From: a virus
Lineage: Duplodnaviria > Caudoviricetes
Virus record (IMG/VR): IMGVR_UViG_3300030433_002650
Span: 1 to 60,175 of that record
Length of the DNA: 60,175 bases
Direction: 5' to 3' (one strand)
The translations under genes and the position numbers were made by a program. Position 1 is the first letter of the stretch; the number at the start of each line of letters is the position of its first letter. The notes beneath the pieces are model-generated. The model was given only the letters and a program-made list of their open reading frames with translations, made no database searches and was not told the origin of the DNA. Positions 1,535-59,911 of the stretch are shown here, piece after piece.

Positions 1535-1873
1535 TCAACAGTTCCATCGCTTGAGAGCCGCACCCTTCGGAGTCAATTTGCCTTTCTTCGATGTTGGTCC
1601 TTTCATACCGCCCATTCTCGCACAGAATGATTTACGACGCTTGGCTTTCTTGCTACCGGGTTTGAGTTTGCTCGGCTTTGTTGTCACAGGTGGCTTGAGG
1701 TTTGCGCCAGTTTCACGTTTAAACTTCGCACGTCCTTTAGCGTTTAAACCGCCCTTTCTGTGATGTCGATTTGGATTGTAACCGTGAAACGGTTTGCTCT
1801 TTTTCTTTGCCTTCATCAATGCCATTGCATTTTCCATTGGTGTACAACAATCGCAAAAGTCGTATTCAATCAT
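1535..1873 (-). CDS. Small, highly basic protein (putative DNA-binding/internal virion protein)
   Basis: K/R-rich. GGLNAKGR...KRRKSFCARM...ALKRWNC resembles a basic marine-phage protein family (recalled as DUF6321-like, unverified). The N-terminus has CDCC plus PMENAMALMK-A. Confidence 0.7.
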   Translation of the reverse strand: MIEYDFCDCCTPMENAMALMKAKKKSKPFHGYNPNRHHRKGGLNAKGRAKFKRETGANLKPPVTTKPSKLKPGSKKAKRRKSFCARMGGMKGPTSKKGKLTPKGAALKRWNC

Positions 1874-29158: not shown

Positions 29159-30259
29159 TCACTTCAAATCCCGAATGGAACCGTGACCTCCAAAGAAAGT
29201 AGTCCAAAGTTCTCCCATTGTGCGGTACATACCTTCTTGTCCAAGACGGTTGATGGCGAATGGGTCGCCAGTTTCAATTCCGGACTCGAAATACTGCGTT
29301 GGGATTGCAGTGGAGAAGTAAAGGTAGTCAGTGTCGAGGAAGTACATACGACTTAGAACGTCAGGTTGTACATCCTTGGAAGGAATGATTGGGACACCGT
29401 TGTATGTAGCAACGATGAAACCTGCCTCAATACCGGGTACACCCTTTACACCATTGTAGGTAGGGGTGACACGCTTCTCTTCCATGAATCGCTGTTGCGA
29501 CTGGAGGAGTTGCTGTAGACGCATGAGTGTGTCGTATCCAGTAAGGATAACCTTCGGGTTACCACCACGAGTCCAAATCTTTTGGAAGAGGTCGTCAAGG
29601 TGGTCGAGGGAGAGCACACGGTCTGTACCACTGTTCTCGTTGTGTTCAGCGAGGGACCAAGAGTTTGCACTTCGGTCGATGCTGTACATGTCCTCGTTTG
29701 CGGAGGCTGATGCACCAGTGGTAACACGGTCGAGGGACTCGAAATCGTTCCCTGCAACAGTTCCCTTGTCAGCAGTCATCATCTTGTTGATGTGTTCAGC
29801 GTGGTGCTTACCCATCTCTTCCTTGAGGATTGCTCGAATGTCGCCAAGTCCATCGTCCTTGTCAGCAAGGAACATTGCGGTTTCGCTCATGTCGAATGTG
29901 TGGACAACCGTCTTTGGCTTGGCCGCAATGTGCTGGAAGGTAGGCTTGGTTGTGTCAGGTAGTGTAGCGTTTTCAGCAACACCGCCGCCCTTTGCGAAGG
30001 AAGGTCGTGCGGTGATGACTCGCCATCCACTGCGCTCCCAAGGTCGCTTTGGTAGGATGGAGAAAGCGTTGAACTCTTGGTTCAACTGGCTCCAAACCTT
30101 GCGTCCGTAGATTGCTTGGTATGTACCTGCGGTCGTAGACAGCATAGGTGCGTCAGCCTTGAGCAACTCGCTACCGGAGTAGGAGTAACCCATGGCGTTA
30201 CCTGCGCCGTAGTAATATCGTTCCATGTCTGTAATGCTTCGGATGTAATCTCTTGCCAT
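29159..30259 (-). CDS. Major capsid protein (HK97 fold)
   Basis: Downstream of protease/scaffold. GGGVAENATLP (E-loop), AAKPKTVVHTFDMSE, YNGVPIIPSKDV...MYFLDTDYL, YRTMGEL...HGSIRDLK. ELLK-ADAP is a candidate maturation site. Strong AGGAG SD. Confidence 0.9.
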   Translation of the reverse strand: MARDYIRSITDMERYYYGAGNAMGYSYSGSELLKADAPMLSTTAGTYQAIYGRKVWSQLNQEFNAFSILPKRPWERSGWRVITARPSFAKGGGVAENATLPDTTKPTFQHIAAKPKTVVHTFDMSETAMFLADKDDGLGDIRAILKEEMGKHHAEHINKMMTADKGTVAGNDFESLDRVTTGASASANEDMYSIDRSANSWSLAEHNENSGTDRVLSLDHLDDLFQKIWTRGGNPKVILTGYDTLMRLQQLLQSQQRFMEEKRVTPTYNGVKGVPGIEAGFIVATYNGVPIIPSKDVQPDVLSRMYFLDTDYLYFSTAIPTQYFESGIETGDPFAINRLGQEGMYRTMGELWTTFFGGHGSIRDLK

Positions 30260-30277
30260 ATTCTTCAACTCCTAATT

Positions 30278-31657
30278 TCAGGCTCCCCTCAACGTCTTGT
30301 TTGCAAGGCTGTGAACCTCATCCCATGACATGTTACCCAAGTCTTGGGTTGAAGGAACTTCAACAGTTGCGGAGGAAACAGACTTTGCGATGGTGTGGCT
30401 CTCGGTGCTCAAGTTATCAATGCGCTCGGAGAGGTCACCAATTGACTTGAGGACTTCTGCAAGAGGTCCACGAGCATCAAAGGTGCTTCGTTCTGCTTCT
30501 TGCTTCTCGATTTCGAGTTCCTTTGCAAGTCGCTGGGAAAAGTTTGCTTCCAAGTTGTTTCGGAAGTTTTGTTCAAGAGATGCGGCCTTGTAGACTGCGT
30601 ATGCATTCTCGATGTCGGCTTGGGAAACGTTGCCTTCATTGAGGTAACCCTTAGCCACTGAAACTGGTCCAAGAGCACCTGCTGGTTGCTTGCCACCACC
30701 AGAGGTGAGGGCTGAAAGAGCACCAGTGGAAGGAGAACCGTTTTCCTGTCCTCGTCCACGGACTTGACCAGCAAAGTAGTCAGCACCATCAACGGAATCA
30801 GGGTTGTCAAATCCACCAAGTTGAGCCTTAGCCAAGTCGTCAAAGTGTGCACGAGCACTACCAATATCGACTCCAGCCGACTTCAATGTGTCTTCCATCC
30901 AGTTGAGGTATTCGGATGTAATAACATCACCAAATTCTTCACCTTTCATGTACGCCATTTTGTCGTCATCTTTCTTTTCTTCTTTCATGTCTTCACCATC
31001 TTTCTTTTCTTCTTTTGGCTCGTCATCTTTCTTATCCTTGATGTGCTCACGGAGTTGAGGAGGAATTTCTCCCTTTTCCATTGCATCAAGTCGGGCTTCC
31101 AATCGTTCCATAACGCTGTTCAAATCAACTTCACTTGTCATATTTGTGTCCTCCTTTAGTATACTGAATTGTGCTTCAGGATTGATGCCCTTCTCACAAA
31201 TAGTAATTTCATGCAATTCCATCTTTGAAATCTCTTGGTAGTCGCCTTTGATGCTGTCAGACTTTCGCACTCGCTTGAATGCTTGTCCTCCAATTGAGAA
31301 TCCACGAAGGTTACCCTTGCGAATCTCGGCGGCTACTTCACGAGCCTTCTCAATGTCGTTGCGGAGTTGAACAACAACAAACATGCCAGTGTCGTCACAT
31401 TCGGACTTCCACATTCGGCCATTGCTGTCTACGTAAGAATCCAAGACTTCACCGACTTGGATGTTTGAGTGAGCCAGTTGTACATTGCGGTACTTGTCAC
31501 TCTTCATGAACCCGTCAAATGCATCCTTTAGAGCACCACGAGTAATAAGGTCGCCTTGCTTATCGACCATTTCGACGCTTGCATAACCTGCAACAACCAA
31601 GTCAGACCCACTCTTGAGGAGAGTGATGTCCATATTGGGTCGCTTTAGCGTCAGCAT
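30278..31657 (-). CDS. Prohead (maturation) protease, HK97-type, fused to C-terminal scaffolding domain
   Basis: VVAGYASVEMVDKQGDLI, LAH (catalytic His), LRGFSIGG (catalytic Ser) and LHEITICEKGINPEA, followed by a coiled-coil/acidic scaffold region. Confidence 0.9.
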   Translation of the reverse strand: MLTLKRPNMDITLLKSGSDLVVAGYASVEMVDKQGDLITRGALKDAFDGFMKSDKYRNVQLAHSNIQVGEVLDSYVDSNGRMWKSECDDTGMFVVVQLRNDIEKAREVAAEIRKGNLRGFSIGGQAFKRVRKSDSIKGDYQEISKMELHEITICEKGINPEAQFSILKEDTNMTSEVDLNSVMERLEARLDAMEKGEIPPQLREHIKDKKDDEPKEEKKDGEDMKEEKKDDDKMAYMKGEEFGDVITSEYLNWMEDTLKSAGVDIGSARAHFDDLAKAQLGGFDNPDSVDGADYFAGQVRGRGQENGSPSTGALSALTSGGGKQPAGALGPVSVAKGYLNEGNVSQADIENAYAVYKAASLEQNFRNNLEANFSQRLAKELEIEKQEAERSTFDARGPLAEVLKSIGDLSERIDNLSTESHTIAKSVSSATVEVPSTQDLGNMSWDEVHSLANKTLRGA

Positions 31658-37440: not shown

Positions 37441-37453
37441 ACTTTCACCGCCA

Positions 37454-38056: not shown

Positions 38057-38388
38057 TACTTCATCTCCTGTTCTTTTGCTGTTGCGGCCATCTCATGGAT
38101 TTCTTCCCATGACATGTTGTGGAACTCCTCATTGGTTTGAGGAACGGATGAAACTGGGTCACCCTTGAGAATTGAATCATTTTCCATATCAGCACGAAGT
38201 GGGTCAAAACCTAAATCCATTGACAATGGAGTAGACGAAGAAACCAAGCCCATCTTGCGTAGCAACGCCTTTGGATTGTTGATGGTCGCACGAAGACGCT
38301 CGTTCTCTTGCTTAAGCAATGCTAAATCAGAATCCATGTTCTCCATCTTTGTAATGAGAACACTCATCAACTGCTGTGCATCGCTGTC
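38056..38388 (-). CDS. Putative accessory scaffolding protein (coiled coil plus C-terminal NMSWEEIH motif)
   Basis: Coiled coil LITKMENMDSDLALLKQENERLR. Its C-terminus matches that of the protease-scaffold protein. Start approximate (MADSD). Confidence 0.55.
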   Translation of the reverse strand, partial: DSDAQQLMSVLITKMENMDSDLALLKQENERLRATINNPKALLRKMGLVSSSTPLSMDLGFDPLRADMENDSILKGDPVSSVPQTNEEFHNMSWEEIHEMAATAKEQEMK

Positions 38389-38399
38389 AGCCATAAAAC

Positions 38400-38753
38400 T
38401 CAACCTCGTCGTCCAAATGTTCCAGTAGCAGGTCGGAAGTTGCTTCGAGATTGTCGGCTTTGCACTGTGCCTGAAAGACGGTTACCAGTAAGTGGTACGT
38501 AGTTGTCTTCCTTTTGGAATTGGAATGGGGCTACTCCATTTACGTAGATGTCTTTTGCACCAGTCTTTGAAGCGGCATTTTCAGCCTTGAAGATTTCAGT
38601 TTGTAGGTCTTCAAGCAAAAAGTCCGATAGTTTCTGTACTTCGTTTAGGTGTTGCTTTGCAAGACTGCCATCTCCTTGTTCAAGAGCCGTTAAGAAAGCC
38701 TTGTTTGCTTGTTCCATTTTACGTGCCATTGGGTGCATTTTCAATAAATCCAT
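38400..38753 (-). CDS. Hypothetical head-assembly protein
   Basis: Start MDLLK behind GAGGGGT; helical; TTTAAACA box upstream. Confidence 0.6.
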   Translation of the reverse strand: MDLLKMHPMARKMEQANKAFLTALEQGDGSLAKQHLNEVQKLSDFLLEDLQTEIFKAENAASKTGAKDIYVNGVAPFQFQKEDNYVPLTGNRLSGTVQSRQSRSNFRPATGTFGRRG

Positions 38754-38798: not shown

Positions 38799-40589
38799 TT
38801 ACCGCCCTCTCGGTCTACGGGCATTCAATAATGCGTTTGAAACGTTTTGCATCATAGAAGGTTCAGGTCCACGTTGCTGAACGCTTGAAATCGGTGAACC
38901 GCTTCCCATTGTACCACGTCGTTGTGGTGCTACTGGACCACGATTTCGTATACCCATTCCTTCACTACCGGGTTGTAGTGGCGGTGCGATACCGGGAGGA
39001 AGTTGTCGTGATTGTGGGGGCATTGCTCCCATTTGCGGTGGCATTCCGCCCATCATCTGTGGGGGCATACCTCCACCGGGTGGCATTGGTGGCATACCTC
39101 GACCACCCATCATCTGTGGAGGCATACCACCGGGTGGAGGTGCACCACCGGGTGGTGGTGCTGGCGCAGGTGGTGGCTTACGGTAGACAAATCGTACATC
39201 ACGGTTCGATGGGTCTTCCAAGAGTTCAGGTTGGAATCCAAGTTGTGCCATACGTTGTGCAACGTTGAGTTCTTGTTCATCTCGTCGTAGACGTGTAATT
39301 TCATCCTCTTCTTCGTTTGGATAAAGTGTGAGTTTCCAATCATGAATGTTCATTTGACGAAGTAGACGTGGGAACAATACTTCTGTGTACACTTTTTGAC
39401 CAAACTCAACAGCACGATTGGTAACAAGAATTTGCAGTCCTTCATTGTTCAGACCGCCTGATTTACCATTATCAACCATGAAGATTGACGATACACCGTA
39501 GAAAGCCGCTATGCGATTACGTATCTCGTCACGCACAGCGATATACTGCATTTCTTCAAGCGTGTCCATGAATTTAATCCAATTTACACCACCACGACCC
39601 GATTGTGATTCAATACCAACACGAGGAATGTAATGTGGGTCACGTTCCAACTTCTCATCAGTAGCCTTCCAAAAAGCCTTCATGGATTCAAGGTTGTCCG
39701 TTGTAACAGATATGACACCCTTTGGAATACGGCGTTTTTGATACGCCGTGTAAATATAGTTGTCCATTGCCGTCAATGTCATGGCTTGTCGCCACATGGT
39801 ATTGACAGGAGAGCGACCGTACAATTTTGATGGATTGTATTTTGAAACATGCAGTACTTCCCCTTCAACAAAGTACTGCGTCTTACCGCTACCTGCCATA
39901 TTGACGTAATGGACATCTTGAAGGTCAGAACCACATATCTCGCATGTATCGTCTTCGGCATGGGTTTTGACTTGTTCACGGTGTATCAAACAGGTTTTGT
40001 ATCGTCCACCACGTACACCACGCTTGTCAGCAACAATACGCATGAAAATAGGGTCACCACGCACCATTTCTTTGACTCGATAAAATTGTACTTCTTTGGT
40101 TTCAGGGTCAATAAAGTACTCCTTTACCAAAATCAAAAATGCGTCGTCAATGATGTTAAGGTCATTTTCAACTTCATGGAGTAGATGGTGAAACGATTGC
40201 TCCATGCTGTTTTCTTGCTTAAGTAACCACTTAGCATAGGTTAGTTCATCAGGGTCAGGCTTACGTACAGCACCACCACATTCTTTGCACGCTTCCATTT
40301 CTTGCTGATATTCTTCATCACACGCTGTGCATTTTACAGTGAAACGCTTCTCCCAGTAGAATCCACGTCGAAACATTTCTTGACGTAGTTTTGAAAGTAC
40401 AGTACGTAAAATAAGTGATTCGTTGCTTACTGCAAACAATGCGGGGAGTGTAATACCCTGCGCCATGACAGGTTCTTGAATACCGCTTGACCAAAGCGGC
40501 ATAGTTGGTGTAGGACTCTCACGACGACGGAATGGACTTCCGATAGCCGATAGGAATCGTGAGATTCGTCCTTGTTCTTCCGCCATCAC
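38799..40589 (-). CDS. Portal protein with two inserted Zn ribbons and a P/G/M-rich C-terminal tail
   Basis: DLNIIDDAFL, EVLHVSKYNPSKLYGRSP, RIPKGVI and EIRNRIAAFYGVS are HK97-family portal motifs; lies between terminase and protease. Confidence 0.9.
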   Translation of the reverse strand: MMAEEQGRISRFLSAIGSPFRRRESPTPTMPLWSSGIQEPVMAQGITLPALFAVSNESLILRTVLSKLRQEMFRRGFYWEKRFTVKCTACDEEYQQEMEACKECGGAVRKPDPDELTYAKWLLKQENSMEQSFHHLLHEVENDLNIIDDAFLILVKEYFIDPETKEVQFYRVKEMVRGDPIFMRIVADKRGVRGGRYKTCLIHREQVKTHAEDDTCEICGSDLQDVHYVNMAGSGKTQYFVEGEVLHVSKYNPSKLYGRSPVNTMWRQAMTLTAMDNYIYTAYQKRRIPKGVISVTTDNLESMKAFWKATDEKLERDPHYIPRVGIESQSGRGGVNWIKFMDTLEEMQYIAVRDEIRNRIAAFYGVSSIFMVDNGKSGGLNNEGLQILVTNRAVEFGQKVYTEVLFPRLLRQMNIHDWKLTLYPNEEEDEITRLRRDEQELNVAQRMAQLGFQPELLEDPSNRDVRFVYRKPPPAPAPPPGGAPPPGGMPPQMMGGRGMPPMPPGGGMPPQMMGGMPPQMGAMPPQSRQLPPGIAPPLQPGSEGMGIRNRGPVAPQRRGTMGSGSPISSVQQRGPEPSMMQNVSNALLNARRPRGR

Positions 40590-42813: not shown

Positions 42814-44295
42814 TCATGGTATCATCCATCCACCTGTTTTCTTACCACCTACGGTGTTGTCAAGCCAGTCGCCAAATCCGGGCATCCAATCGTCAAGCAA
42901 AACAACTGTGCCACGGAACTCTTTCGTACCCCAATTGGCTAACGCTAATGCCATAGCCAAGTCATCGTGCGTACCAACAGATTCCAACTTACCGTTCTTT
43001 TGCATACCAAAGCGGTTGAGTTCTTGTTCAAGTTTATGTGTAAAAGCACGACTGCGCTCATCACCATACGGTGTGCGAATTTGTCCTTGCTCAAACGCCA
43101 TTAGCAATGACATGAACATACTTTCCTTGCGCTGTCGAGTTGTCATAAATGTCTTGATAGGGATGTCGTCACGCATGTCTTTGAGTTCAGCCGCAAACAT
43201 GCGTTGGAAGTTGTTACCTTCAAGTTCAATCAAATCAGGCTTGAAACGATTGTTGAGCAACAAAATGTGTTTCTTTTGCGCCGCACCACCCAGTCCCTTC
43301 TCATGCACAATGCCTACGATTTGCTTAACATTTTCATTAGGAGGTGTACGAAGCACCATCATTGCAGTAAAGTCAGCGTTCTTGTCCGATGCAATCGCTG
43401 TGTCCCATCCGATGAAGTGTTGTCCAAAGATTCCCACAGGTTCACCTTCTTCGTCATAATCGGTTTCAGCCCTATCAAGCAACACCAAGTCTTTGTCACG
43501 AGCCTTTTCCAATATGTCATTTGGAAACATACTCGCAACGTCGTGAATCGGTTCACAAAGATACTCACGAGAAAACTGGATAGCCGGCATAGAAAGCCTT
43601 CTGTGTTCAAGTGCCTCAAGATTCCACCGTTCAGGCCACAGTGCTTCACCTTCATTGTTGATAGCAGGGTATGTTTCAACGGTGAAAGCATCTCTTTCTT
43701 CGAGTTCAGCGTACAAGTCGTTGTACGAAAACGGTGTACCGACAATCATCATGCGTCCACTGTGGTGCAGTACAGGAAGCAATACACCGTAGAACCAATC
43801 AGCCGCACGTTGCAATTCAGTACCCGTAGTACCCCATAGAATATCGTCACATACAACCACATCAGGGTGGAAACCACGAGTACCTCCACCAACCGACTTT
43901 GCCATCATACGACTTCCGTTTGCAAACTCAAAGTATGTCTTTCTCCATGGTCGGCCTTGTGGAATTAATCCACGTAGAATGGGTGTTGATTCGATGTTGT
44001 TGCGAATAAATCGCATGTGTTCAAGCGTCTGTTCAAGTGAGTGTGAAAAAATCATGACGTGCTTACCGGGATTGAAGGCTGCAAGCCATAGAGCGTACGA
44101 CATAAAGAAAACAGACTTACCGTGGTCACGACTTGCTTTGACACAGTAGTATCGGTTTTCTTCCAATCCTTTGTCCCAACATTCATGGTGGTACGAATAA
44201 TCAAATCCAAGTATGTTTTCAAAAAAATATCGAAATGACTTTGCCGACATCTTCGCATCCATTTCTTCAATGAAGGCTTGGATGTCTTCGCTCAT
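42814..44295 (-). CDS. terL: Terminase large subunit
   Basis: Walker A ASRDHGKS, Walker B VVVCDD, coupling motif VGTP, nuclease IGWDTA...ADFTA and HDDLAMALALA. Confidence 0.95.
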   Translation of the reverse strand: MSEDIQAFIEEMDAKMSAKSFRYFFENILGFDYSYHHECWDKGLEENRYYCVKASRDHGKSVFFMSYALWLAAFNPGKHVMIFSHSLEQTLEHMRFIRNNIESTPILRGLIPQGRPWRKTYFEFANGSRMMAKSVGGGTRGFHPDVVVCDDILWGTTGTELQRAADWFYGVLLPVLHHSGRMMIVGTPFSYNDLYAELEERDAFTVETYPAINNEGEALWPERWNLEALEHRRLSMPAIQFSREYLCEPIHDVASMFPNDILEKARDKDLVLLDRAETDYDEEGEPVGIFGQHFIGWDTAIASDKNADFTAMMVLRTPPNENVKQIVGIVHEKGLGGAAQKKHILLLNNRFKPDLIELEGNNFQRMFAAELKDMRDDIPIKTFMTTRQRKESMFMSLLMAFEQGQIRTPYGDERSRAFTHKLEQELNRFGMQKNGKLESVGTHDDLAMALALANWGTKEFRGTVVLLDDWMPGFGDWLDNTVGGKKTGGWMIP

Positions 44296-45374: not shown

Positions 45375-47540
45375 TCACCTCAAATTCATCTTTATGATTT
45401 TTACAACTTGAGGCTTGACATTGTACGACTTTGCAATGTTATGCCAGTCGCCCATTGTATGTTGTATGGCCGTAACTTCGCTACTGGTCAATCCTGTGTA
45501 TTTTGCAAGATTTACTGGTGATTGTAGCGATGGAGTAATGTGTGAAGAAACGTCACCGTCAAGGCTTGCTTCTTTGTATTGCATACGTTCAAGAGCCTTC
45601 ATCAGTCTGTCCATAAGTGGAAGATGCATGTCCTCGGCCTTCATGTAATCAGTCAGCAGACGTTGGCGTGGGTCTGATAAGGCTTGCTGTGACCTTGCTT
45701 CCAATTCGGTCAAAGGAGCATCGCTAATTGGTTGCGGTCGGGTCGCCCCTGCAATTTGCAACATTTCACGGAATTGCGCTGGTGTAAAGTCAGCAATACC
45801 GGGTCGTAGTTGTTGAAATTCAGGAGTAGGTGTCCCAGCCGGCTGAACAACAGGACGATTTTGCTGTGGTGCGGGAACAGGCGGAGGTGTTCTTGCCTGT
45901 TCAACGGGAGGTACACCTTCCGGCTGGGACATTCCTTTTTTGTTTGGCGCAAAATCATCTATAGTATGAAAATACGCTTCCATATGTTCATCCAATATTG
46001 GCGCAGGGAACTCACCCGTTTCAGGGTCACGAATAGGATAACCGTGAATGGTTTGCATTCGCATTGGTTCTGTTGGGATTTCACCAATATCCATTTGCAC
46101 AGTGTGACCTCGTGCTTCGGCTTGGTGGTTGGCTAATGCTTCAATGACGTTACGGAATCGGTCTACTTGTTCAAGTCGCTGTTCACTGTATGGTAGCCCT
46201 GCGGCCTCAAGTTCATCAGCCGTAATTTGATGTTCACCAAACCTACTGCGGCTTTCGTTTTCACCTCGACCCGAAGAACGTGCAACCGACATAACACGCT
46301 TTGCGTTCTTGTGCAAGCCTTGACCACCTTTTTCCCCTGCCCTGAAGTACTTGCCATGTTCTTCGGCTGAAAGTTCATCTTCGGGCGCACCGAATTTTGT
46401 CATCATATAATCGTACAACTTTTTGAAATTACCTTGATAACTGCGACCAAACAAATACATCAGTGCGGGTACATGTGCCATGTCTTTAACAAGTGCTTCT
46501 TTGAGGTCTTTGTTTCCAAGAATTTCACGAAGACCTCGCTGTATCATGTTTGGTGCGCCAAGTGTACCTGTATTGAGCGTAACTGGTACATCAGGAATAG
46601 ATTCAATACCACCCTGCTCCAATGCTTGGTCAATCATGGCGTGAGCCGCCTCTACAAGTTTTGTCGGTGCTTGACCCCCACTCATAATGTCTTTGTCCAT
46701 TGAACGTGACGGATAAAAGAAAATGTCAGGTAAGTGATGCACTGTTTCCCATGTATGCACACTTTGTTGTTCAGGGAAATAATCATCAGGGGCATTACCC
46801 ATCATTTCACTGGTGTACGTATCAGGATGCTCTCCCTTACTTGAATACGCCCAACCCTGCGGTGCAGTGTGTTTTGCATAGACATACGGATAGGTTACAC
46901 CTGATTTAAGAGAACCTTTGATTTGACGGTCTTCATACCCCATGTCTTGAAGCAAATGAAACAGATTTTGATGAAATGGAATGTAATACGATTCAATAAA
47001 TCGACCATGCGGTGTTTCATCTGGATTTTTGTTGGTAAGTGTTGTAATTAACGTATTGTTGTGTGTACGACTTTGACGGTCAGTAATTTCTTTTCCATCT
47101 TCATCCTTTGATGTTATTCCTTGAGGTAATTGATTTGCTCGTATTTTTCGCCATGCTAAATTGTCAAACGGAGGTAGTTCGTGGTGATGTCTATGTGTGT
47201 GAGAACGATTAAAATTATCAATTGCTTTATTGATAACCGCAATAGGGTCTATGTCACCTTTACCTGTTTTATTCAAAAAATCCGCAAGTTGCATCGCTAA
47301 AGCGTCAATTCCGTGATAAAAATTACCGTGTTGTGTCTTATACGCTAACGGACCTGAACTCGAATCAAACTCACCTTCGATAACATCTCCACGTCCGTTG
47401 TGTGCAAAAGCGGGAATATCAGGTTCATGCGGTGGACGAAACGTTGGAGCAGGTGGATTACGTACATTAACTGGTCCTTCGGGTGGGTGAAGTATCATAC
47501 TCCATGCTTTGAGCAAACGTGGAGGCTGAATACGAATCAT
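45375..47540 (-). CDS. Hypothetical 721-aa protein (putative internal head protein)
   Basis: MIRIQPPRLLK-A leader; PIP-like RQRLLTDYM near the C-terminus. Confidence 0.65.
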   Translation of the reverse strand: MIRIQPPRLLKAWSMILHPPEGPVNVRNPPAPTFRPPHEPDIPAFAHNGRGDVIEGEFDSSSGPLAYKTQHGNFYHGIDALAMQLADFLNKTGKGDIDPIAVINKAIDNFNRSHTHRHHHELPPFDNLAWRKIRANQLPQGITSKDEDGKEITDRQSRTHNNTLITTLTNKNPDETPHGRFIESYYIPFHQNLFHLLQDMGYEDRQIKGSLKSGVTYPYVYAKHTAPQGWAYSSKGEHPDTYTSEMMGNAPDDYFPEQQSVHTWETVHHLPDIFFYPSRSMDKDIMSGGQAPTKLVEAAHAMIDQALEQGGIESIPDVPVTLNTGTLGAPNMIQRGLREILGNKDLKEALVKDMAHVPALMYLFGRSYQGNFKKLYDYMMTKFGAPEDELSAEEHGKYFRAGEKGGQGLHKNAKRVMSVARSSGRGENESRSRFGEHQITADELEAAGLPYSEQRLEQVDRFRNVIEALANHQAEARGHTVQMDIGEIPTEPMRMQTIHGYPIRDPETGEFPAPILDEHMEAYFHTIDDFAPNKKGMSQPEGVPPVEQARTPPPVPAPQQNRPVVQPAGTPTPEFQQLRPGIADFTPAQFREMLQIAGATRPQPISDAPLTELEARSQQALSDPRQRLLTDYMKAEDMHLPLMDRLMKALERMQYKEASLDGDVSSHITPSLQSPVNLAKYTGLTSSEVTAIQHTMGDWHNIAKSYNVKPQVVKIIKMNLR

Positions 47541-49423
47541 CCCATGTGCCCCCGCTTTGAAGTCAAATATCCAGCAGGGTCAAGTCCAAACCGCTTTGCA
47601 TCTGTTTCCAAATTTTCGGTTGGACCTTCGGGGTCTTCTTCGTCCTTTGCACGAACAGCCGCAGGGTGACTTGGGACATGGCCGTTTTCCATTGCTGAAC
47701 GTGTACCTTGCATTGACTTATGCATACGTTCAGCACGTTCTTGTGCTGCAATCAAACGACGAAGAAGGTTGAGTTTGTGATACATTAGGCTACCACGTCT
47801 TGCTTTGAGTAAGTCGCTTTCTGTACGTTCCTCACTCATCATCATTGGAGTTGATGCTTGAGGTAGTGGTGAAATACTTGATGGTGCTTGCATTGGTGGA
47901 CTTGGTACACCCATTGGTGGTGCGGGGGCTATAACAGGATTACGGGGTCGTCGTAGTCGTGGACGACGCACACCAATTTGTCGCAACGAAGGTTGTCGCA
48001 TTTGCCCTGATTGTCCGGGCATCAAACCACCAAGACGACCTGCACCTGTTGGACCTGCTGTTACGGAGCGTTCACCGTATCGAGCGTGCGGTGAGAATGT
48101 TGAGCGTACATTACCAAGTATTTTACGAGCCTCGGATTGACCCATGTATTGTCGATACTTCTGTGGGTCTTTGGACATTGGTTGCTTTGTTGCAATACCA
48201 CGGTGACTCATCTCAACAGACAAGTGTGGCTTCATCAGACCTGTTTTCTTACCACCCTTGATACCTCGCATACGTGCTCGGAATCGACGCATAGTTGCAC
48301 CGACAGGATTCATACCACCGGGTGGTCGCTTGAATTGACCTGTAGATGGACGGAACTGTTGTCGCTTTTCACGACGACGACGTGATTCAATACTCTTAGG
48401 TGTATCACGCTTGAGAATGTCAGATACCAAAACAAAGTCACTGGACTTTTGTTCAAGACGAGGGTCAGGAATAAGATTCATATTTGAATCATAAACCATG
48501 TTTGGAATTGGCGATGGAGTTAAGCCTGAATAATCAACTGCGTTATCTCGCATCATGAACTTTTGAGGTATCATTGTTGTAGAAAGACGCTGTAAATTGT
48601 GCAGTTGTGCGGGACTTAAATCAAAACCTGCACGTTGAGCAATTGAGCCACGTCGTCCACCACCAAAGTTTCCTCCACCCAGTCGTTCAATATTTCTTCT
48701 TTCTATGGCAGGGTAAGGTAATTCTTGCTGTTGTGAAGGAGAAAGTTGAGTACGAGCCACCAAGTAATCGTAATAGTCAGGGTCACTGTACATTAGTCTT
48801 TTATCAATACCTGCGTCCAATCTTTTTTGACCCATTGCGAATTGTTTTCTACGACGTTCTGCCGGTTCTCCGGCCGCACGTCGTGTGCCAACCATTCCAT
48901 GTGCTTGACCTTCCGCTATGTTTTTTTGACTTGGTGATTCACTTGTTCTAAATCGAGGGTTAAACACAACACCTCTTTGGTCACCAAGTACAGCCTTGAG
49001 TAGCGAACTCCAAGCACCATCCATCGGCTCACTCATTGCAATCGGCAACGGTCCAGTCATTGCTGAACCTGTACCTGTCTTTGCGCCTGTTGCAAGGTCG
49101 AGAAGATTACCACGACTACCCGCCGGACCACCTTGTAGGCTAATCTCACGCTCGTCATCTTGCTTATTGCTGTCGTCTTCAGGAACAGGTGACTCTTCAC
49201 CCTTCAATCCCTGTGATGAGCGAATCTTGATGTGCTTGATTTTATCACGACGTTGCTTGCGTTCTTCGGCTCGCAACTTGCGGTTTTCTTCTTTCTTCTC
49301 CTTTTCTTCAGGAGTATTACCACTGTATTTTGTGCCGTCCTCATTGGCCGACGAGTACATCGTTTCCGATTCACTACGTGGTGCATACATTCGGGTGTCA
49401 GAACCTCTTCCCATCATTGGCAT
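47537..49423 (-). CDS. R/P/M-rich multi-segment protein (putative internal head polyprotein)
   Basis: Segments separated by SEPMDGAWSSLLK-A, SDILK-R and SDLLK-A; very basic segments. Confidence 0.6.
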   Translation of the reverse strand: MPMMGRGSDTRMYAPRSESETMYSSANEDGTKYSGNTPEEKEKKEENRKLRAEERKQRRDKIKHIKIRSSQGLKGEESPVPEDDSNKQDDEREISLQGGPAGSRGNLLDLATGAKTGTGSAMTGPLPIAMSEPMDGAWSSLLKAVLGDQRGVVFNPRFRTSESPSQKNIAEGQAHGMVGTRRAAGEPAERRRKQFAMGQKRLDAGIDKRLMYSDPDYYDYLVARTQLSPSQQQELPYPAIERRNIERLGGGNFGGGRRGSIAQRAGFDLSPAQLHNLQRLSTTMIPQKFMMRDNAVDYSGLTPSPIPNMVYDSNMNLIPDPRLEQKSSDFVLVSDILKRDTPKSIESRRRREKRQQFRPSTGQFKRPPGGMNPVGATMRRFRARMRGIKGGKKTGLMKPHLSVEMSHRGIATKQPMSKDPQKYRQYMGQSEARKILGNVRSTFSPHARYGERSVTAGPTGAGRLGGLMPGQSGQMRQPSLRQIGVRRPRLRRPRNPVIAPAPPMGVPSPPMQAPSSISPLPQASTPMMMSEERTESDLLKARRGSLMYHKLNLLRRLIAAQERAERMHKSMQGTRSAMENGHVPSHPAAVRAKDEEDPEGPTENLETDAKRFGLDPAGYLTSKRGHMG

Positions 49424-54201: not shown

Positions 54202-56181
54202 TTACTCACTGGGTCGTAGTGTCCCTTTGTCCTTAAAATGTCTTGCTCGATTGTCGTGTTCGGATTCCAGTGTCAGTTTTCCGCCTTCTGTATGCGACAC
54301 GTCCATGTGGTCACCACTGCCGTAGATACCACGTCGCCGTCGCTCACGATTCAACTCCTCTCGATACTTGACTCGTTCAGGACTGGACTCGTACTTTTTG
54401 TCGTACTCCAACTTGTGACGCTTGGCTTCAGGTGACAAGTCTTTGAGCAATGCATTCATTACCAAATCCATTGGTTCGCTTTTGTTTGAAAATTGAAAAC
54501 CTGCTGGAAATTGTATATCTGTTGAGGGTTCAGTTTTATTTTCATCTTTATGAAATTCACTCAATTTATTCATTCTATCAAAATAATCATCACGATTTTG
54601 TGCTTCGTTTAAGTATCTATGGTCTTTTATTGAAAAAAATGGTATAATTGGATTATTTTCATAATACTCTTTGAACCATTCGTTATGCTGTTCTCCTTTC
54701 AATAAAGCATCTATTGCCAAATCCATTGGTTCACTGGCAACGATTCTTGCGCCGCCCATGCGGTCAAGAAGAAAATCAGATGTTTTAGGAAGATAACCTG
54801 TTACTGGGTCACGTTGGCTTTCAAGAGTTGTTGCTGGTAATCGTGACAACATATCGTAAACTGGTTTGTAATCATAATACTTGTATGCGTCACCTGTAAG
54901 TGGATTACCTGTTAAGATTCTTCTTGCTGATGATACCAATTCTCTTCGAGGAGCGATAGCGGCTGTTCCCAATCCGCCGTCTAAACGTACAAATGCGTCT
55001 TTATCAAAACCAAATGGTTGATACCCTTCGGGCTGTGTTCTTCCGTGTGCCATACCTGCCATCCATTCAGGTTTGTCAAGTATACCAAGTGTTACAGTAT
55101 CACCGATTCCCCAGTTAAAATCAGGATAACCCATTCTTAATTCAGGTGTAATCGACTGTAAATCATTCGGCCAAACAAAAGTACCTTGTATTTCTTTACG
55201 AGGGTCGTCGGGTATTTCATAGTCGAGTGTAAAACCGGGTATGGTTGCACCACCTTCTCTTGCAATTTGTCGTTCAAATTCTAATGGGTCACCGGGTCTT
55301 TCACCACGAAGTGGCACTGGCATGTTAAATGCCGGCATACCACCACTTTCTAGACGATGAACGGGGATGTTTCGTATAACTGGAACATCTTTTGCTTGTA
55401 ATCCAAACTCTTGAAGCGTTGGAATTTCACTGTAAATACGACGTTGTGCGGCACTTTGGAACTTAAGCAAGGTGTCCATTGCCAAGTCCATTGGCTCGCC
55501 TGTGATAACGGGGATGAATGGTCCATGTACAGGATAGCCATTAATTTCAGATTGTTCATTTATCATGTTTATATGTTGATTAATCTCATCAGGATGCGTC
55601 AAAGCAAACGGATGTTCGTCAGCGTATTCCGAACCGGGTGCTGTGCCTTCTTGTGCTTGCTTGTAATAATCAGCAAAGGAAGGCACTTTTGGATGTTGCA
55701 TAAACTCTTGAACAGTCATTGGTTGGTTACCAAGACTTTGCATGAAGGCTTTGTGCTTGTCAAAGGCTTGCATAACGTGGTCTTTGTATGTGTCTTTGTA
55801 TGCGTTAAGTGCTCGTTGTGTTGTTGAGTCACGAGCCATTTGTTTTACACCTAATTTTGCTTCTTCTGTTCCTTCATCAAAATGAAATTCAGGAATTTCA
55901 AGTTCTATGTCGTCCATCATTTGTTGCTCTTGAGCACCTTGCAATTTAAAATGTGAATCAGGCATTTGCACTTTTGGATTTCTACGCATGATTGCTTCGC
56001 CTTGCTCCATTGCATCTTCAGGCATGTCTTGCTTTACATTTTCTCGAAATTTTTCAGGCGTTGTACCCATACCACGCAATGTGGCAATGGTAAGGGCATC
56101 AATGTCATCTATGGATAACGGATTTAAGCGAGTTTCTTCTTTTGCTTTACGATTCCAATTTGTAAACATTGTATCACTCAT
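54202..56181 (-). CDS. Segmented protein with three EPMDLAMDxLLK repeats and C-terminal HNH-like (His-Me) domain
   Basis: EPMDLAMDTLLK, EPMDLAIDALLK and EPMDLVMNALLK. The last segment contains GDHMDVSH...LTLESEHDNRARH. Confidence 0.65.
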   Translation of the reverse strand: MSDTMFTNWNRKAKEETRLNPLSIDDIDALTIATLRGMGTTPEKFRENVKQDMPEDAMEQGEAIMRRNPKVQMPDSHFKLQGAQEQQMMDDIELEIPEFHFDEGTEEAKLGVKQMARDSTTQRALNAYKDTYKDHVMQAFDKHKAFMQSLGNQPMTVQEFMQHPKVPSFADYYKQAQEGTAPGSEYADEHPFALTHPDEINQHINMINEQSEINGYPVHGPFIPVITGEPMDLAMDTLLKFQSAAQRRIYSEIPTLQEFGLQAKDVPVIRNIPVHRLESGGMPAFNMPVPLRGERPGDPLEFERQIAREGGATIPGFTLDYEIPDDPRKEIQGTFVWPNDLQSITPELRMGYPDFNWGIGDTVTLGILDKPEWMAGMAHGRTQPEGYQPFGFDKDAFVRLDGGLGTAAIAPRRELVSSARRILTGNPLTGDAYKYYDYKPVYDMLSRLPATTLESQRDPVTGYLPKTSDFLLDRMGGARIVASEPMDLAIDALLKGEQHNEWFKEYYENNPIIPFFSIKDHRYLNEAQNRDDYFDRMNKLSEFHKDENKTEPSTDIQFPAGFQFSNKSEPMDLVMNALLKDLSPEAKRHKLEYDKKYESSPERVKYREELNRERRRRGIYGSGDHMDVSHTEGGKLTLESEHDNRARHFKDKGTLRPSE

Positions 56182-57812
56182 CCAAATAGTTCTGATAATT
56201 CTTCAAATTGCGTCAATTTTTTGTTGGTTGGATAACTGGTATTAAATCTGTGGTTGAACAATTCAATGAGAGCATCCTTTGTATGCGGTGGTGCGTTTGC
56301 CAGCGCAGCCATCGGGTCACCCCATGTTTGGGGTAAGGTTAGGTCACGTAGTGTAAGTGCATCTCCTGTATTGGGTCTGTCCCACCAATCACTTGCTCCT
56401 AAACGTCGTATCAAGCCAAGTTTTCTTCCTAATTGACGTTCTCTCGATTCACCACTATTAAAGTAATTACGGTCTTCCTCTTCGATTGCTTCTAAAAGGC
56501 GAATTTTTTCATCGTTTGTAAGCACAGCCGGCATTCCATGCCTATCGACCATATCTTCAAATTCAGGGGGTGCATATTGCATAAACGGTAAATGGTCACG
56601 AATGTAGGCAAATTTTTGATTGCGTGATATTGTATCATCTTTTTCACGACCTATGGCTTGACGAAAATCCTGTGCTGTTTTTGGTCGAAAGAAGTTTCTT
56701 ATGTCGTTTAGTGAAAGAAAGTTTGTTTTACTACGTCCATCTCCTCTTATCATATTCTTATACGAATCATTGTATCGAAACGGTACAAGCCGTTCAGGGG
56801 CTATACGACTGTGTACAATGGCTTCTGTTGCACCTTCTTTTGCCTCACCTGCTGGACGTGCTTGGAATATATCGCCACTTGGTGCACCAAATCCACGAAC
56901 ACCAATAAGCGCATTTGTATCGTGGGTTGTAACTGCCCTGTCTAAATCAGCAACGTACGGTGTAGTCAAAAAGTACCCACTTTGGAAGTGTTCAAGAGGT
57001 GGGTTTTGTGATTGCACAAGCATAGGGCGACGACCCGTATTTCGACTTTCATATGATTCATTGTTATAGTTTGGAAGCGGTATCAATCCACCACCTGTTT
57101 GTGCCATGCCGCCCATAATATCACGATTGCTTGCACGACGTACAGCCGTCACAGGGGCTACTGCGCCTTCACGCACCAATCCCGTTTTAGGGTCAAGCCA
57201 ATCTTCGGTATGGTATGAGGGAAAATGTTCAGGCAACGTAGTTTGACGGCCAAAGTAATCACGGAATTGTGGAGTATTGCGTAAACCTTCGAGCAATGTT
57301 TCACTTCTTGGTTGTTCAGGAGTAGAATCTGGTCTTGGGCCTTTTAAACGACCAAATTTATTTTGTATTTTTGTATATGAAACTGGATTGATATTACGCA
57401 TTATTTCTTCTTCTGTAAGTTCAGCCAATCTTTTTGGTACATTGGAGACATTTCTTTTGCTACGCATATCTTGAATGTATTGCTCTACAATATCTTCAGG
57501 GTTTTCTGTTTTGGCTCGCAACTCGTCAAGATGCATGTTTAATTGCTGTTCAGCCGACAGTGGAGAAACTTCGGGTAAATCAAAAGGTTTCTGAAACGTA
57601 ATAGGTGGTGAATCGGAAAAAGTTTGCATGTTTTCGTAAGTATCAAAGTCACTAAGTTTACTTTGAGTTGTCGCAGGTATGCTTTCGTTTTGTTTAAATT
57701 GAAAATACGGGTCTTGTGCTCTTGACGTTGGAACTTCAGGCAAACTTACCGGATAAAAGTCGCTAAGACGAGTCTGTTGCTTGAGAACAAGCACAGGGTT
57801 CGCTCCGACCAT
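56178..57812 (-). CDS. Multi-PIP-box protein with central ADP-ribosyltransferase-like domain
   Basis: PVLVLK-QQTRLSDFY, TQSKLSDF, RQTTLPEHF and NKKLTQF. PVTAVRR...SGYFLTT...ALIGVR...EGATEAIVHSRIAPERLV aligns with 440..1021. Confidence 0.55.
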   Translation of the reverse strand: MVGANPVLVLKQQTRLSDFYPVSLPEVPTSRAQDPYFQFKQNESIPATTQSKLSDFDTYENMQTFSDSPPITFQKPFDLPEVSPLSAEQQLNMHLDELRAKTENPEDIVEQYIQDMRSKRNVSNVPKRLAELTEEEIMRNINPVSYTKIQNKFGRLKGPRPDSTPEQPRSETLLEGLRNTPQFRDYFGRQTTLPEHFPSYHTEDWLDPKTGLVREGAVAPVTAVRRASNRDIMGGMAQTGGGLIPLPNYNNESYESRNTGRRPMLVQSQNPPLEHFQSGYFLTTPYVADLDRAVTTHDTNALIGVRGFGAPSGDIFQARPAGEAKEGATEAIVHSRIAPERLVPFRYNDSYKNMIRGDGRSKTNFLSLNDIRNFFRPKTAQDFRQAIGREKDDTISRNQKFAYIRDHLPFMQYAPPEFEDMVDRHGMPAVLTNDEKIRLLEAIEEEDRNYFNSGESRERQLGRKLGLIRRLGASDWWDRPNTGDALTLRDLTLPQTWGDPMAALANAPPHTKDALIELFNHRFNTSYPTNKKLTQFEELSELFG

Positions 57813-57863: not shown

Positions 57864-58457
57864 ATGGGCGACAAGGTATTGGTGGTCAAAGCACCAATCT
57901 TACCACTGCTTTTACCACTACTTGGTGGTCTTGGTATGGGTGCTATTGGTCGTAAATTAGGTAAAGAAGGAGCCGAGGCTGCTGCTGGTGCAGGTGCTAA
58001 GGCGGCAGCAGGTGCAGCAACACAAGGGGCTACTCAAGCGGCTACTCAAGGTGCAAAACAAATGTCAGGTAAGCAATTTGCAATGCAAATGGCTCAACAA
58101 CAACAAAATGCGGCGGCTCAACAACGTCAAGACCAAAAAGCACAGCAAGAACAACGTGCTTTAGAGATGGCTGAAAAAGCAAAAGGCGGTGCAGGGACTA
58201 TGCAAAAGCAGTTGCAGGGCGTACTTGACGACCTTCGACTTCTCAAGGGTACACTGCAACTACCAACTGCACTAAGCGAAGAGTTGCGTGACACCATCAA
58301 GACGCTTGATAACGACCATGTTATTGTCGATAACAAGGACGAAACGCTTGTTCACAACACGACACCGTTTACAGAAGACATTATTCGCCGTTTATCGGAA
58401 ACAGAAGACGAGAAAGCGGAAGAACCGTTGTTCCAACCACAGCAATTGTTCTATTGA
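57864..58457 (+). CDS. A/G/Q-rich protein with hydrophobic N-terminus (DNA pilot/ejection-protein-like)
   Basis: MGDKVLVVK-APILPLLLPLLGGLGMGAIG..., then an A/G-rich stretch and a Q-rich coiled coil; divergently transcribed. Confidence 0.6.
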   Translation: MGDKVLVVKAPILPLLLPLLGGLGMGAIGRKLGKEGAEAAAGAGAKAAAGAATQGATQAATQGAKQMSGKQFAMQMAQQQQNAAAQQRQDQKAQQEQRALEMAEKAKGGAGTMQKQLQGVLDDLRLLKGTLQLPTALSEELRDTIKTLDNDHVIVDNKDETLVHNTTPFTEDIIRRLSETEDEKAEEPLFQPQQLFY

Positions 58458-59248
58458 CCGAAGTCGTCAAGACTTGTTTGCTTTGTACCACGGTGTTGCA
58501 TAAACAGATTACCTAATTGTGGCTTGATTGTATCTTGAAAATTGACAATTGGTAGCGTATTGTAGTCGGGTTGTAAATCACCCCAACCCTGTACGTCACG
58601 TACTGCTTGTTGTTTTGAGTCTTTTATTGGGTCTTTCATGTAAATAAACTCCCTTCTCCCAACGGCATCACGTAATTTTGCATTTACATCAATATTGGGT
58701 GGTAGGCGACGTTGGAATTTTTGATGAAATGGTTCAGATGCATAATTTCTTGAAGTTGAATGTATATTCATGTTATTTTGCAGTATTGTATTTAACAGTC
58801 TTTCGTAATGTCCTTTGCGTCGTTCACCCTCTCGTGTTTGAGCCATTAGGCTTGATAATGTTGGATTAGCAGTTGATATTCCTTGACGTTGATTGAATGA
58901 TTCGGAATCTCTTATCATTCCACTAACCTTTGAGTATTCATTACCTTCATCATCTTCAAGAACGTATTCATCGGCCCAATTGCTTTCAGGATAGCGTACA
59001 ACTCTCGTTGGTGTTTTAGGTGGGCTTGTGTCCATTCGACGTGCTAATCCTTCTGCAAATTCCCTGTCTATGACTTCTGCTGAATCAGCAAGCACAGGCA
59101 TAAAAGACGAGCCATCTTTTGGTAGTGTTCTTTGTCGATTTACTACTGGCCTATCACGAAAAAGGTCTGATAATTCTCTAAATCGGCTGTCGTAAATCAT
59201 TGTATCTTCTTCTTTGAGCAAAGACCAAGCAATGTCAAAGGCGTTCAT
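58451..59248 (-). CDS. Putative GNAT-fold acetyltransferase with AWSLLK leader and C-terminal PIP-box
   Basis: MNAFDIAWSLLK-EE; motif A-like TREGERRKGHYERLL; SRNYASEPFHQKF; C-terminal KQTSLDDFGQ. GGTGA SD before the ATG at 59248. Confidence 0.55.
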   Translation of the reverse strand: MNAFDIAWSLLKEEDTMIYDSRFRELSDLFRDRPVVNRQRTLPKDGSSFMPVLADSAEVIDREFAEGLARRMDTSPPKTPTRVVRYPESNWADEYVLEDDEGNEYSKVSGMIRDSESFNQRQGISTANPTLSSLMAQTREGERRKGHYERLLNTILQNNMNIHSTSRNYASEPFHQKFQRRLPPNIDVNAKLRDAVGRREFIYMKDPIKDSKQQAVRDVQGWGDLQPDYNTLPIVNFQDTIKPQLGNLFMQHRGTKQTSLDDFGQ

Positions 59249-59252
59249 TTGT

Positions 59253-59834
59253 TCACCGCTTTGGTTTGATGTTTTGCAAGGCTTGACTGAAGTCACGACC
59301 TACAGTTGCATCACCAATAAATTCAGGCGGTAGGGTTGTTTGACGTGGGTCTTGAGGCATTGTTTGAGGTTGCGGTAGTCTTGGTGCAAACTGGATAGGC
59401 GGAGTCTGTCCTTGTTGTCGAGCCATAGCCAATGCTTGCGCCAATTGACCCTGTGGGTCTACTTGCGACTCCATTGCTTCACGGAAGTCTTGTTTTTTAA
59501 CACCATACTGTTTTGCATATGCTCTATCAAAATCTTCTGCTGTCATTTCATTGTATTGACCGCAATCAGGGCAAAAAATATCTACATACATTCTTGGATT
59601 TTCTTGATTACCAATATAATGTCCATACATTATCCCACCAGCACAACCATGACAAGGAACTGGCGGTGCTGGTTCTGCAACAGTTTCAGGATGAAAACTT
59701 TGTGCTTCACGTTCCATTCTTTCACGATGCCCGAAAGGATATTCAAGAGGTAGACCACGTTCATCTATAGTATAGCCACGTTCATTTAAATTTTCTTTTA
59801 ACATAATCCATGCTATGTCAAATGACTGGCTCAT
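59253..59834 (-). CDS. Zn-ribbon protein with FDIAWIMLK leader and PIP-like motif
   Basis: MSQSFDIAWIMLK-EN, CHGC...CPDC, RQTTLPPEF. An alternative start lies at 59858. Confidence 0.6.
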   Translation of the reverse strand: MSQSFDIAWIMLKENLNERGYTIDERGLPLEYPFGHRERMEREAQSFHPETVAEPAPPVPCHGCAGGIMYGHYIGNQENPRMYVDIFCPDCGQYNEMTAEDFDRAYAKQYGVKKQDFREAMESQVDPQGQLAQALAMARQQGQTPPIQFAPRLPQPQTMPQDPRQTTLPPEFIGDATVGRDFSQALQNIKPKR

Positions 59835-59911
59835 GGAGTTGGGAGGTAGTTTCACCATAAAAATTTTGTTTGAAATTTTTTTTCTCGGAAAGGTGTGCGT
59901 GACTAAAAGAA

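Follow-up and report, generated by a model that had tools for sequence, protein, structure and literature searches.

The window analysed here, the whole of a 60,175-base stretch of DNA (IMG/VR record IMGVR_UViG_3300030433_002650; rated 56% complete), is the structural arm of a tailed virus in which almost all genes lie on the minus strand. The open reading frame (ORF) under study (58451-59248, minus strand; ATG at 59248, stop at 58451-58453) encodes a protein of 265 amino acids (P0001; hereafter the target). It is best explained, albeit tentatively and at rather less than even chances for the explanation as a whole, as a three-part accessory protein of a magrovirus-type virus of Poseidoniales. 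Its first 12 residues would form an amphipathic helix serving as a tag, most likely a procapsid address that is removed after LLK by the S78 protease of the virus, in the manner of the T4 capsid-targeting sequence (CTS). Residues ~61-240 would adopt a divergent GNAT fold with an [RQ]-R-x-G-x-Y loop and an S..RN..S.PFH.KF block, most likely that of an acyl-CoA-dependent acyltransferase. The tail, probably disordered, carries a Q-T-S-L-D-D-F that would copy the C-terminal PCNA-interaction format of the clamp clients of the presumed host. Such a tail would keep the enzyme on a sliding clamp, more plausibly host PCNA than that of the virus, where it would modify a clamp-proximal protein or DNA.

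The target gene and its family

The gene and the motifs quoted for it in the first-pass annotation are confirmed, while the interpretation given there is, overall, partly supported. The leader FDIAWSLLK occupies residues 4-12 (59213-59239), RRKGHYERLL residues 143-152 (58793-58822) and KQTSLDDF residues 256-263, after which only G-Q and the stop codon remain. The parts of the protein are laid out as follows.

59213..59248 (-): N-terminal tag MNAFDIAWSLLK, residues 1-12; helix predicted at residues 3-14
58529..59068 (-): GNAT-like core, ~residues 61-240; pLDDT 84-97; Foldseek matches in PDB and BFVD
58805..58822 (-): RRKGHY, residues 143-148; between a strand and a helix, at the site of GNAT motif A
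58715..58759 (-): S164..R167-N168..S171.P-F-H175.K-F178, the most conserved block, in the fifth strand and next helix of the core
58454..58528 (-): C-terminal tail, residues 241-265; block pLDDT 52-63, probably disordered
58460..58480 (-): PIP-like QTSLDDF, residues 257-263; short helix predicted at residues 260-263

Homologues of the target at E<=1e-3 numbered 29 in a word-indexed search and 48 in an exhaustive one, from marine metagenomes and on contigs of up to ~100 kb; no match to the target was found by tblastn in 50,697 phage records. The family alignment comprises 67 sequences, over which all column and motif counts given below were taken. The relatives reached via the target include G001 (101.7 kb), G002 (107.2 kb), G004 (107.6 kb, with terminal repeats) and G006 (85.7 kb).

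At its 3' end the target gene meets a plus-strand ORF (57864-58457, 197 amino acids) in a convergent overlap of 7 bases; no other plus-strand ORF of appreciable size lies among the tagged genes. The product of the 57864-58457 ORF has a hydrophobic N-terminus, an Ala/Gly/Gln-rich middle and the ending ...PLFQPQQLFY; G001 has a conserved counterpart (1383-2087), which shares the C-terminus and is encoded on the other strand from its neighbours.

The virus and its presumed host

Besides a tail-tube-like protein, the structural arm in the window encodes the following.

42814-44295: large terminase (TerL)
38799-40589: portal, the N-terminus of which has Q-G-R-I-S-R-F-L
30278..31657 (-): S78 prohead protease with a long C-terminal extension; its N-terminus reads ...MDITLLK-SG before the protease domain
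29159..30268 (-): major capsid protein (MCP), SU10-type, with a conserved SELLK-AD at ~residues 32-38, a possible maturation cleavage site

The other arm is found in the relatives and encodes PolB, an RFC-like clamp loader and, directly upstream of PolB, a conserved protein of 250 amino acids; the loader and the same 250-residue clamp family occur in four of the four near-complete relatives (G001, G002, G004 and G006). Also encoded in G002 are a SNF2 helicase, a piece of a PriL-like primase and a thermosome subunit, the last matching the archaeal model at 2.5e-120 and GroEL at 1e-26. According to the available text of Philosof 2017 (PMC5434244), group A magroviruses combine PolB, a sliding clamp, RFC, a primase, a thermosome and a SNF2 helicase with an HK97-type structural module, and their inferred hosts are the marine group II archaea. 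The structural module of this gene set lies in the window, and the replication set in G001, G002, G004 and G006. The window is assigned to a magrovirus-type tailed virus, with marine group II archaea (Poseidoniales) as its presumed hosts, and that the host itself is a presumption counts against the proposal. The choice of Poseidoniaceae as the host lineage follows from the host assignment in the available text of PMC5434244 together with the nearest cellular relatives of the G002 thermosome, which include Poseidoniaceae genomes. A bacterial host with a beta-clamp motif, as the nearest terminase might suggest (Bacteroides phages, 29%), was rejected on account of the archaeal-type thermosome, RFC and PriL-like genes of the relatives.

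The 250-residue protein is a candidate sliding clamp by virtue of its position upstream of PolB, the gene content described by Philosof 2017 and a lead from the ESM Atlas, which places it nearest to gp45-type sliding clamps (0.93-0.94, to be read as a lead only). PCNA_N (PF00705) had no match in G001-G003, and the candidate itself had no sequence match in Pfam, PHROGs, NCBIfam or PDB.

Two further observations concern this arm. The best contig matches to the viral thermosome (L030 and L031; 79% and 49%) sit in a metagenome-assembled genome labelled as an alphaproteobacterium, and are probably mis-binned magrovirus contigs. In the replication arm of G002 (L006-L007), the translations of seven called ORFs show ...(L)IYK[AGE]T[LV]...(G)D(N)M, either at their beginning or further in, immediately ahead of the residue at which the protein probably starts. 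This suggests a DNA element repeated upstream of these genes, a candidate promoter whose TATA-like core would lie ~21 bases ahead of the ATG.

A portable N-terminal tag

The description of the target as tagged holds well, as the motif at its N-terminus is shared, modular and found on unrelated domains. The tag, M-x-[AP]-[FM]-x-x-A-[WFM]-x-L-L-K, lies within the first 30 residues of 56 of the 67 family members, and two further members bear it behind an N-terminal extension. Its core pattern occurs three times in the window against a shuffle mean of 0.0, a count reached by 0 of 1000 shuffles; the shuffle tests covered 42 minus-strand ORFs (19107 residues), and both this pattern and the Q[ST] pattern discussed below were picked after seeing the data. 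In the window, the tag precedes a GNAT-like domain, a Zn-ribbon, DUF6321, a phrog_6437 module and other modules. Since it occurs before such unrelated domains, and since the cyanophage S-CBS2 homologue of the phrog_6437 module is without it, the tag is a portable module, here placed on proteins encoded with the morphogenesis genes. In G002, 6 of 97 ORFs are tagged and are grouped at one genome end (97-105.6 kb).

In these respects the tag looks like a modular address or propeptide signal. Its closest precedent is found in T4, for which the available text of PMC3012670 describes the CTS as the only feature common to diverse internal proteins; the present tag is likewise an N-terminal element common to unrelated domains beside the head genes. 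It differs from the CTS in showing no sequence similarity to it, in occurring also inside multi-module proteins and, once, in standing at a protein C-terminus (G001 35047-35823).

The end of the tag suggests how it might be used. LLK is kept near the N-termini of both the MCP and the protease in G000, G001 and G002, the protease N-terminus reading ...[AE]LLK-[SG] ahead of the protease domain in all three. The conserved SELLK-AD of the MCP, together with this arrangement in the protease, suggests that LLK marks a maturation cleavage site. On the other side, LLK was rejected as proof of cleavage because the tripeptide is common, and only its conserved placement is suggestive; the case for packaging and cleavage is circumstantial. 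That the target is packaged in virions is put at slightly under an even chance.

A C-terminal tail resembling those of PCNA clients of the presumed host

The general PCNA-interaction (PIP) format is Q-x-x-[LIM]-x-x-[FYW](-[FYW]) in a flexible, terminal region, and the target tail offers it as Q257-T-S-L260-D-D-F263; the second aromatic is absent, and the FEN1 and PolB tails of the host also stop at the seventh position. The first-pass annotation had recognised here a C-terminal PIP box of the archaeal type, and the format itself is confirmed in the presumed host lineage. The comparison took in four families in each of three Poseidoniaceae genomes (G008-G010), with PCNA_N found in 3/3. In all three, FEN1 ends in ...GGQPTLFEF, the RFC large subunit (RFC-L) in ...DP[SA]Q[TR]TLF, RNase HII in ...PAQRTLF and PolB in ...NRQSSLFSF; that is, 12 of 12 PCNA clients end in Q-x-[ST]-L-F(-x-F). 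The three host-lineage genomes gave no match to ATP-dependent ligase (TIGR00574), and hence no ligase tail for the comparison. Like these archaeal PIP boxes, the Q-x-[ST]-L...F of the target sits in a flexible tail, at or close to the C-terminus, and it agrees with the host format at Q1, S3, L4, F7 and in its C-terminal position.

The motif is also more frequent in the window than expected. Q[ST]xLx{2,3}F has six copies where shuffling gives 0.6 on average (0 of 1000 shuffles reach six), and five of the six copies fall in three genes at 56-60 kb. For the generic Qxx[LIM]xx[FYW] the excess is only mild (17 against 10.4; 34 of 1000 shuffles reach 17). A looser motif was found eight times in G001, where 3.7 were expected (13 of 500 shuffles); one copy, RQTTLDKFL, belongs to a replication-module ORF, and a replication-module ORF of G002 bears QRSLDDYL. 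Within the family, Q257 and L260 are invariant in the 22 closest sequences, 41 of the 67 members have a looser tail motif that allows 2-3 residues ahead of the aromatic, and the motif recurs in the otherwise unalignable tails of relatives at 25-40% identity.

A number of results nevertheless tell against clamp binding. In the host motif Phe comes right after Leu, whereas the target has Asp-Asp there; two residues (G-Q) come after F263, whereas the host tails end at Phe. Conservation of the PIP motif in orthologues, the lack of which the first-pass annotation named as refuting, is only half borne out, with the strict form Q[STQ]x[LIMF]xx[FWY] kept in just 26 of the 67 members. The long-form orthologues (45-53% identical) read Q-T-x-L-x-D-(K/R)-x-F-L, with the aromatic shifted by two, and end in ...LG.LFG. 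The looser motif is not enriched in G002 (3 against 3.4 expected). Further, the RQTTL copies in 440-1021, the 544-residue protein and the G004 polyprotein stand at the start of a shared domain, where they may have a structural role instead of being linear motifs. The viral PolB tails, too, lack the motif (...PKSYF, ...PKRYGW), a difference which fits separate addressing of the viral clamp and host PCNA without proving it. Co-folding of three copies of the G001 clamp with the last 50 residues of the G001 orthologue (37-row clamp and 22-row tail alignments), in a run without controls, scored 0.02 and 0.01 against a mark of 0.32, from which nothing follows either way. On balance, clamp binding is put at even chances.

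The company that the motif keeps also admits another explanation, in which the target is a GNAT-fold enzyme but Q-T-x-L...F is a signal for the assembly or processing of virion cargo, acting as a protease site or as a docking site for the portal, the scaffold or other cargo. Consistent with this, the motif is found with the tag in the same few proteins, as the clustering of five of its six copies at 56-60 kb illustrates, and it follows right behind the ...LK of the tag in 440-1021, 1022-1525 and the 544-residue protein; its L-to-F spacing is variable, G002 shows no enrichment, and the Q-G-R-I-S-R-F-L of the portal N-terminus is of a similar kind. Such a signal is nonetheless rather unlikely: the motif fits the tails of every one of the 12 host clients examined, its place, in a low-confidence tail at the C-terminus or close to it, is typical of PIP boxes, and the replication-module ORFs of G001 and G002 carry RQTTLDKFL and QRSLDDYL.

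A quite improbable alternative is that the tail binds the 250-residue clamp of the virus itself instead of host PCNA. The protein would then not be injected, and would act while the virus replicates or expresses its late genes, for example by modifying DNA or protein while tethered to the clamp. The clamp clients of T4 with C-terminal tails, and Mom, the GNAT-fold DNA modifier of phage Mu, provide comparisons. Clamp and RFC-like loader do occur in all four near-complete family-bearing relatives, the ESM Atlas lead is to gp45-type clamps, and an ...[LM]FG ending recurs in the 544-residue protein, a 522-residue protein of G002 and the long-form orthologues. On the other hand, the viral PolB, the surest client of a viral clamp, ends otherwise, the gene belongs to the late/structural strand among tagged genes, and the motif resembles the tails of host clients. 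Host PCNA is retained as the better candidate for the clamp that the target tail would bind.

A probable, divergent GNAT fold in the core

Residues ~61-240 very probably have a GNAT fold, as judged from predicted structures. A first AlphaFold model, built from 22 sequences, had a pLDDT of 64.6; a second, built from 67 sequences, reached 81.3, with the core (61-240) at 84-97. Foldseek searches of PDB with both models returned GNAT-superfamily chains at E 1.6e-4 to ~2e-3, among them SpeG, Naa10/NatA, Naa20, Naa60, nourseothricin acetyltransferase, FeeM and the GNAT domain of ICL2, while most of the named matches in BFVD were acyl-CoA N-acyltransferases. In GNAT enzymes, motif A (Q/R-x-x-G-x-G/A) forms the loop before the cofactor-binding helix. 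RRKGHY falls between strand 130-138 and helix 147-157 of the model, and the corresponding columns hold R/Q143 in 57, R144 in 64, G146 in 60 and Y148 in 67 of the 67 sequences. Y148, R167 and H175 are invariant (67/67), R144, S164, N168, S171, F174, F178 and Y203 are nearly so, and the residues of the conserved block fall, by position along the fold, in the strand-helix unit after RRKGHY. As the invariant residues sit at GNAT cofactor-binding positions, a conserved active or ligand site is suggested.

Compared with the GNAT superfamily (nearest members SpeG and Naa10/NatA), the target model shares the central mixed sheet, the strand-loop-helix (130-157) with [RQ]-x-x-G and the strand-helix-strand-strand that comes next. 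It departs from the superfamily in lacking sequence membership, in the Tyr of motif A, in the absence of the helices after the first strand, in the addition of a long helix (52-72) that precedes the first strand of the core, and in its long low-confidence N- and C-terminal extensions with linear motifs.

These departures, and the sequence searches, weigh against the assignment. Pfam yielded no family at E<=1 for the target, save one unrelated weak match; none of 49 homologues matched a GNAT Pfam family at E<0.01; and PHROGs and NCBIfam gave nothing. The family profile, searched against all PDB sequences, retrieved only FANCM (E 0.18 over 29 residues), which was taken as chance. In the ESM Atlas, some viral Acetyltransf_1 clusters appeared at 0.84-0.86, below the lead threshold of 0.9, and form a weak lead. 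The structural matches themselves are modest, with template modelling (TM) scores by target mostly of ~0.35-0.45 and one of 0.52, at a root-mean-square deviation of 5-6 A; with the second model, the TM scores were 0.34-0.43 for the single-domain chains and 0.13-0.14 for the long ICL2 and pre-ribosome chains. The last position of motif A is Tyr instead of G/A in all 67 sequences, and the two helices usual between the first and second GNAT strands are absent from the model. The similarity to GNAT folds is thus moderate and not close, and the first-pass label of a GNAT-like enzyme stands at the level of the fold, where three Foldseek searches give GNATs, but not at that of sequence profiles, with motif A imperfect. 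The domain is read as a divergent form of the GNAT fold in which a ligand or active site is conserved, and probably as an acyltransferase; catalysis by the target itself is evenly balanced.

The same weaknesses could mean that the GNAT-like domain is non-catalytic, or has another chemistry or target in which clamps play no part, the PIP likeness being fortuitous; the protein might, for example, acetylate small molecules or aminoacyl-tRNA, or be a structural component of the virion built on a GNAT scaffold. The Tyr in place of G/A, the absence of the substrate-binding helices and the invisibility of the domain to profiles all accord with this, as does the variety of chemistries served by GNAT folds, with FeeM and the regulatory domain of ICL2 among the matches. 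It is made very doubtful by the invariance of Y148, R167 and H175 in 67/67, with about ten more residues nearly so, at the cofactor-binding loop and helices of the fold, and by the retention of the tail motif in relatives at 25-40% identity.

For a clamp-tethered acyltransferase, the closest cellular parallel is the cohesin acetyltransferase Eco1/Ctf7 (ESCO). The PIP motif of Eco1 is N-terminal. In the available text of PMC7571713, Eco1 binds PCNA directly, and thereby sets a precedent for clamp-tethered acetylation by a protein with an acetyltransferase fold. It differs in being eukaryotic and cellular, in joining a zinc finger to its GNAT-type domain and in having no virion tag, and the homology between the two is of fold class only.

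Divergence of the target and the capsid

Among the window, G001, G003, G004 and G006, MCP identity is 94-98% (98% between the window and G001), against 78% in G001 and 29% over 161 residues in G004 for the GNAT-like protein. A conserved capsid beside a fast-evolving GNAT-like protein is the pattern expected of a cargo that interacts with the host, and the two ranges of identity (94-98% and 29-78%) suggest arms-race or host-specificity pressure.

Other tagged and motif-bearing genes of the window

The genes of the window that share the tag or the motif with the target are the following.

59253..59858 (-): Zn-ribbon protein, 201 amino acids, with the tag SFDIAWIMLK (59796-59822) and a CxxC...CxxC pair; DPRQTTLPPEF, with Q..F at 59319-59342 (-)
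56178..57812 (-): protein of 544 amino acids, with QQTRLSDFYP (57753-57776), QSKLSDF (57645-57665) and RQTTLPEHF (57222-57245); ends in ...ELSELFG
54202..56181 (-): multi-module protein of 659 amino acids, with internal EPMD.A/V...LLK tags at 55462-55491, 54697-54726 and ~54442-54474
47537..49423 (-): protein of 628 amino acids, with the internal tag EPMDGAWSSLLK at 48995-49024
1535-1873 (-): tagged DUF6321 protein, the domain starting at residue 38
1022-1525 (-): small tagged protein, FxKAWRFLK followed at once by RQMKLYNY
440-1021 (-): small tagged protein, FxKAWRFLK followed at once by RQTTLGEF

The tagged Zn-ribbon protein with RQTTLPPEF, the upstream neighbour of the target, was found as reported in the first-pass annotation, and its QDPRQTTLPPEF resembles the host RFC-L ending ...QDPSQTTLF. 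In the orthologue at G001 318-620, the tag and the RQTTLPPEF end are kept and the Zn-ribbon middle is gone (100 against 201 amino acids); the termini are the conserved parts of this protein. In the 659-residue protein, the last internal tag stands directly before the phrog_6437 module.

A domain of the form ...LLK-x-x-(R)Q-T-x-L-G/P-E-x-F/H-x-D-F-P-S-P-Y-G-P-V... is common to 440-1021, 1022-1525, 56178-57812 and L020 12829-15564, and in G004 it runs on as ...AYHGTT. Presumably, this RQTTL domain is what the first-pass annotation called 'ARTs'; Pfam returned nothing for its copies in the window. The N-terminus of 440-1021 (K-A-W-R-F-L-K-A-T-R-Q-T-T-L-G-E-F) resembles the host PolB tail A-D-E-L-L-K-G-N-R-Q-S-S-L-F-S-F (L122-L124) over ~16 residues, which could be chance, or tag and motif could together mimic a polymerase tail.

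Several tagged proteins share a second C-terminal ending, ...[DE]-[LM]-F-G (ELSELFG, YLEDMFG, LGELFG, ELARMFG), seen in 56178-57812, in G002 100094-101662 (522 amino acids) and in the long-form orthologues; it recalls the C-terminal clamp-binding tails of T4 proteins. A different C-terminal peptide, N-M-S-W-[DE]-E-[VI]-H-x-[LM]-A, is common to the protease-scaffold protein (30278-31657) and a protein of 115 amino acids (38056-38403, minus strand). HK97-type proteases use a C-terminal tail as a capsid-targeting signal, and by analogy the shared peptide may be a separate signal of this kind.

Two giant ORFs also lie on the minus strand. The ORF at 1870-18591 encodes 5573 amino acids and is conserved in G001 (5576 amino acids) and G002 (5976 amino acids). 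The other (31696-37494; 1932 amino acids) lies between the portal and the protease, and its only match is a sub-threshold one to an ATP-dependent ligase domain (E 0.0058).

Implications for magrovirus biology

The available texts of three magrovirus studies (PMC5434244, PMC11706807, PMC10160649), the supplementary tables of which may annotate these genes, make no mention of an acetyltransferase, GNAT, PCNA or PIP in connection with them; 'sliding clamp' is the only relevant term, in PMC5434244. A literature search combining PIP-box, PCNA and archaeal virus returned nothing related. The marine group II archaea are abundant and uncultured, and we know of nothing reported on the ways in which their viruses gain control of them. 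The present analysis provides three handles on such a takeover by magroviruses: an address tag that defines a set of cargo or accessory proteins, a GNAT-fold family invisible to sequence profiles, and a tail matching those of the PCNA clients of the host.

How far these handles reach depends on the number of links that hold. It is unlikely that GNAT fold, catalysis, clamp binding and packaging all hold together in one chain. 'Injected' and a 'PCNA-directed suite with the ARTs', as the first-pass annotation had it, are a further step of inference. In its fullest form, the proposal would have capsids loaded with tagged enzymes (the GNAT-fold protein, the Zn-ribbon protein and the RQTTL 'ARTs') that come into the cell together with the DNA, dock on host PCNA by mimicking the tails of RFC, FEN1, RNase HII and PolB, and chemically modify or block the host replisome while the virus uses its own, differently addressed clamp and polymerase; this, likewise, is improbable as it stands. 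If it were true, neither a virion-delivered, clamp-directed effector system nor a capsid-targeting signal would have been described before it for an archaeal virus. Binding of the tail to PCNA can be tested with peptides and recombinant PCNA only, needing no culture of host or virus. If the tail does bind PCNA, it would represent viral mimicry of the archaeal clamp-interaction code and would mark the host replisome as a target of takeover.

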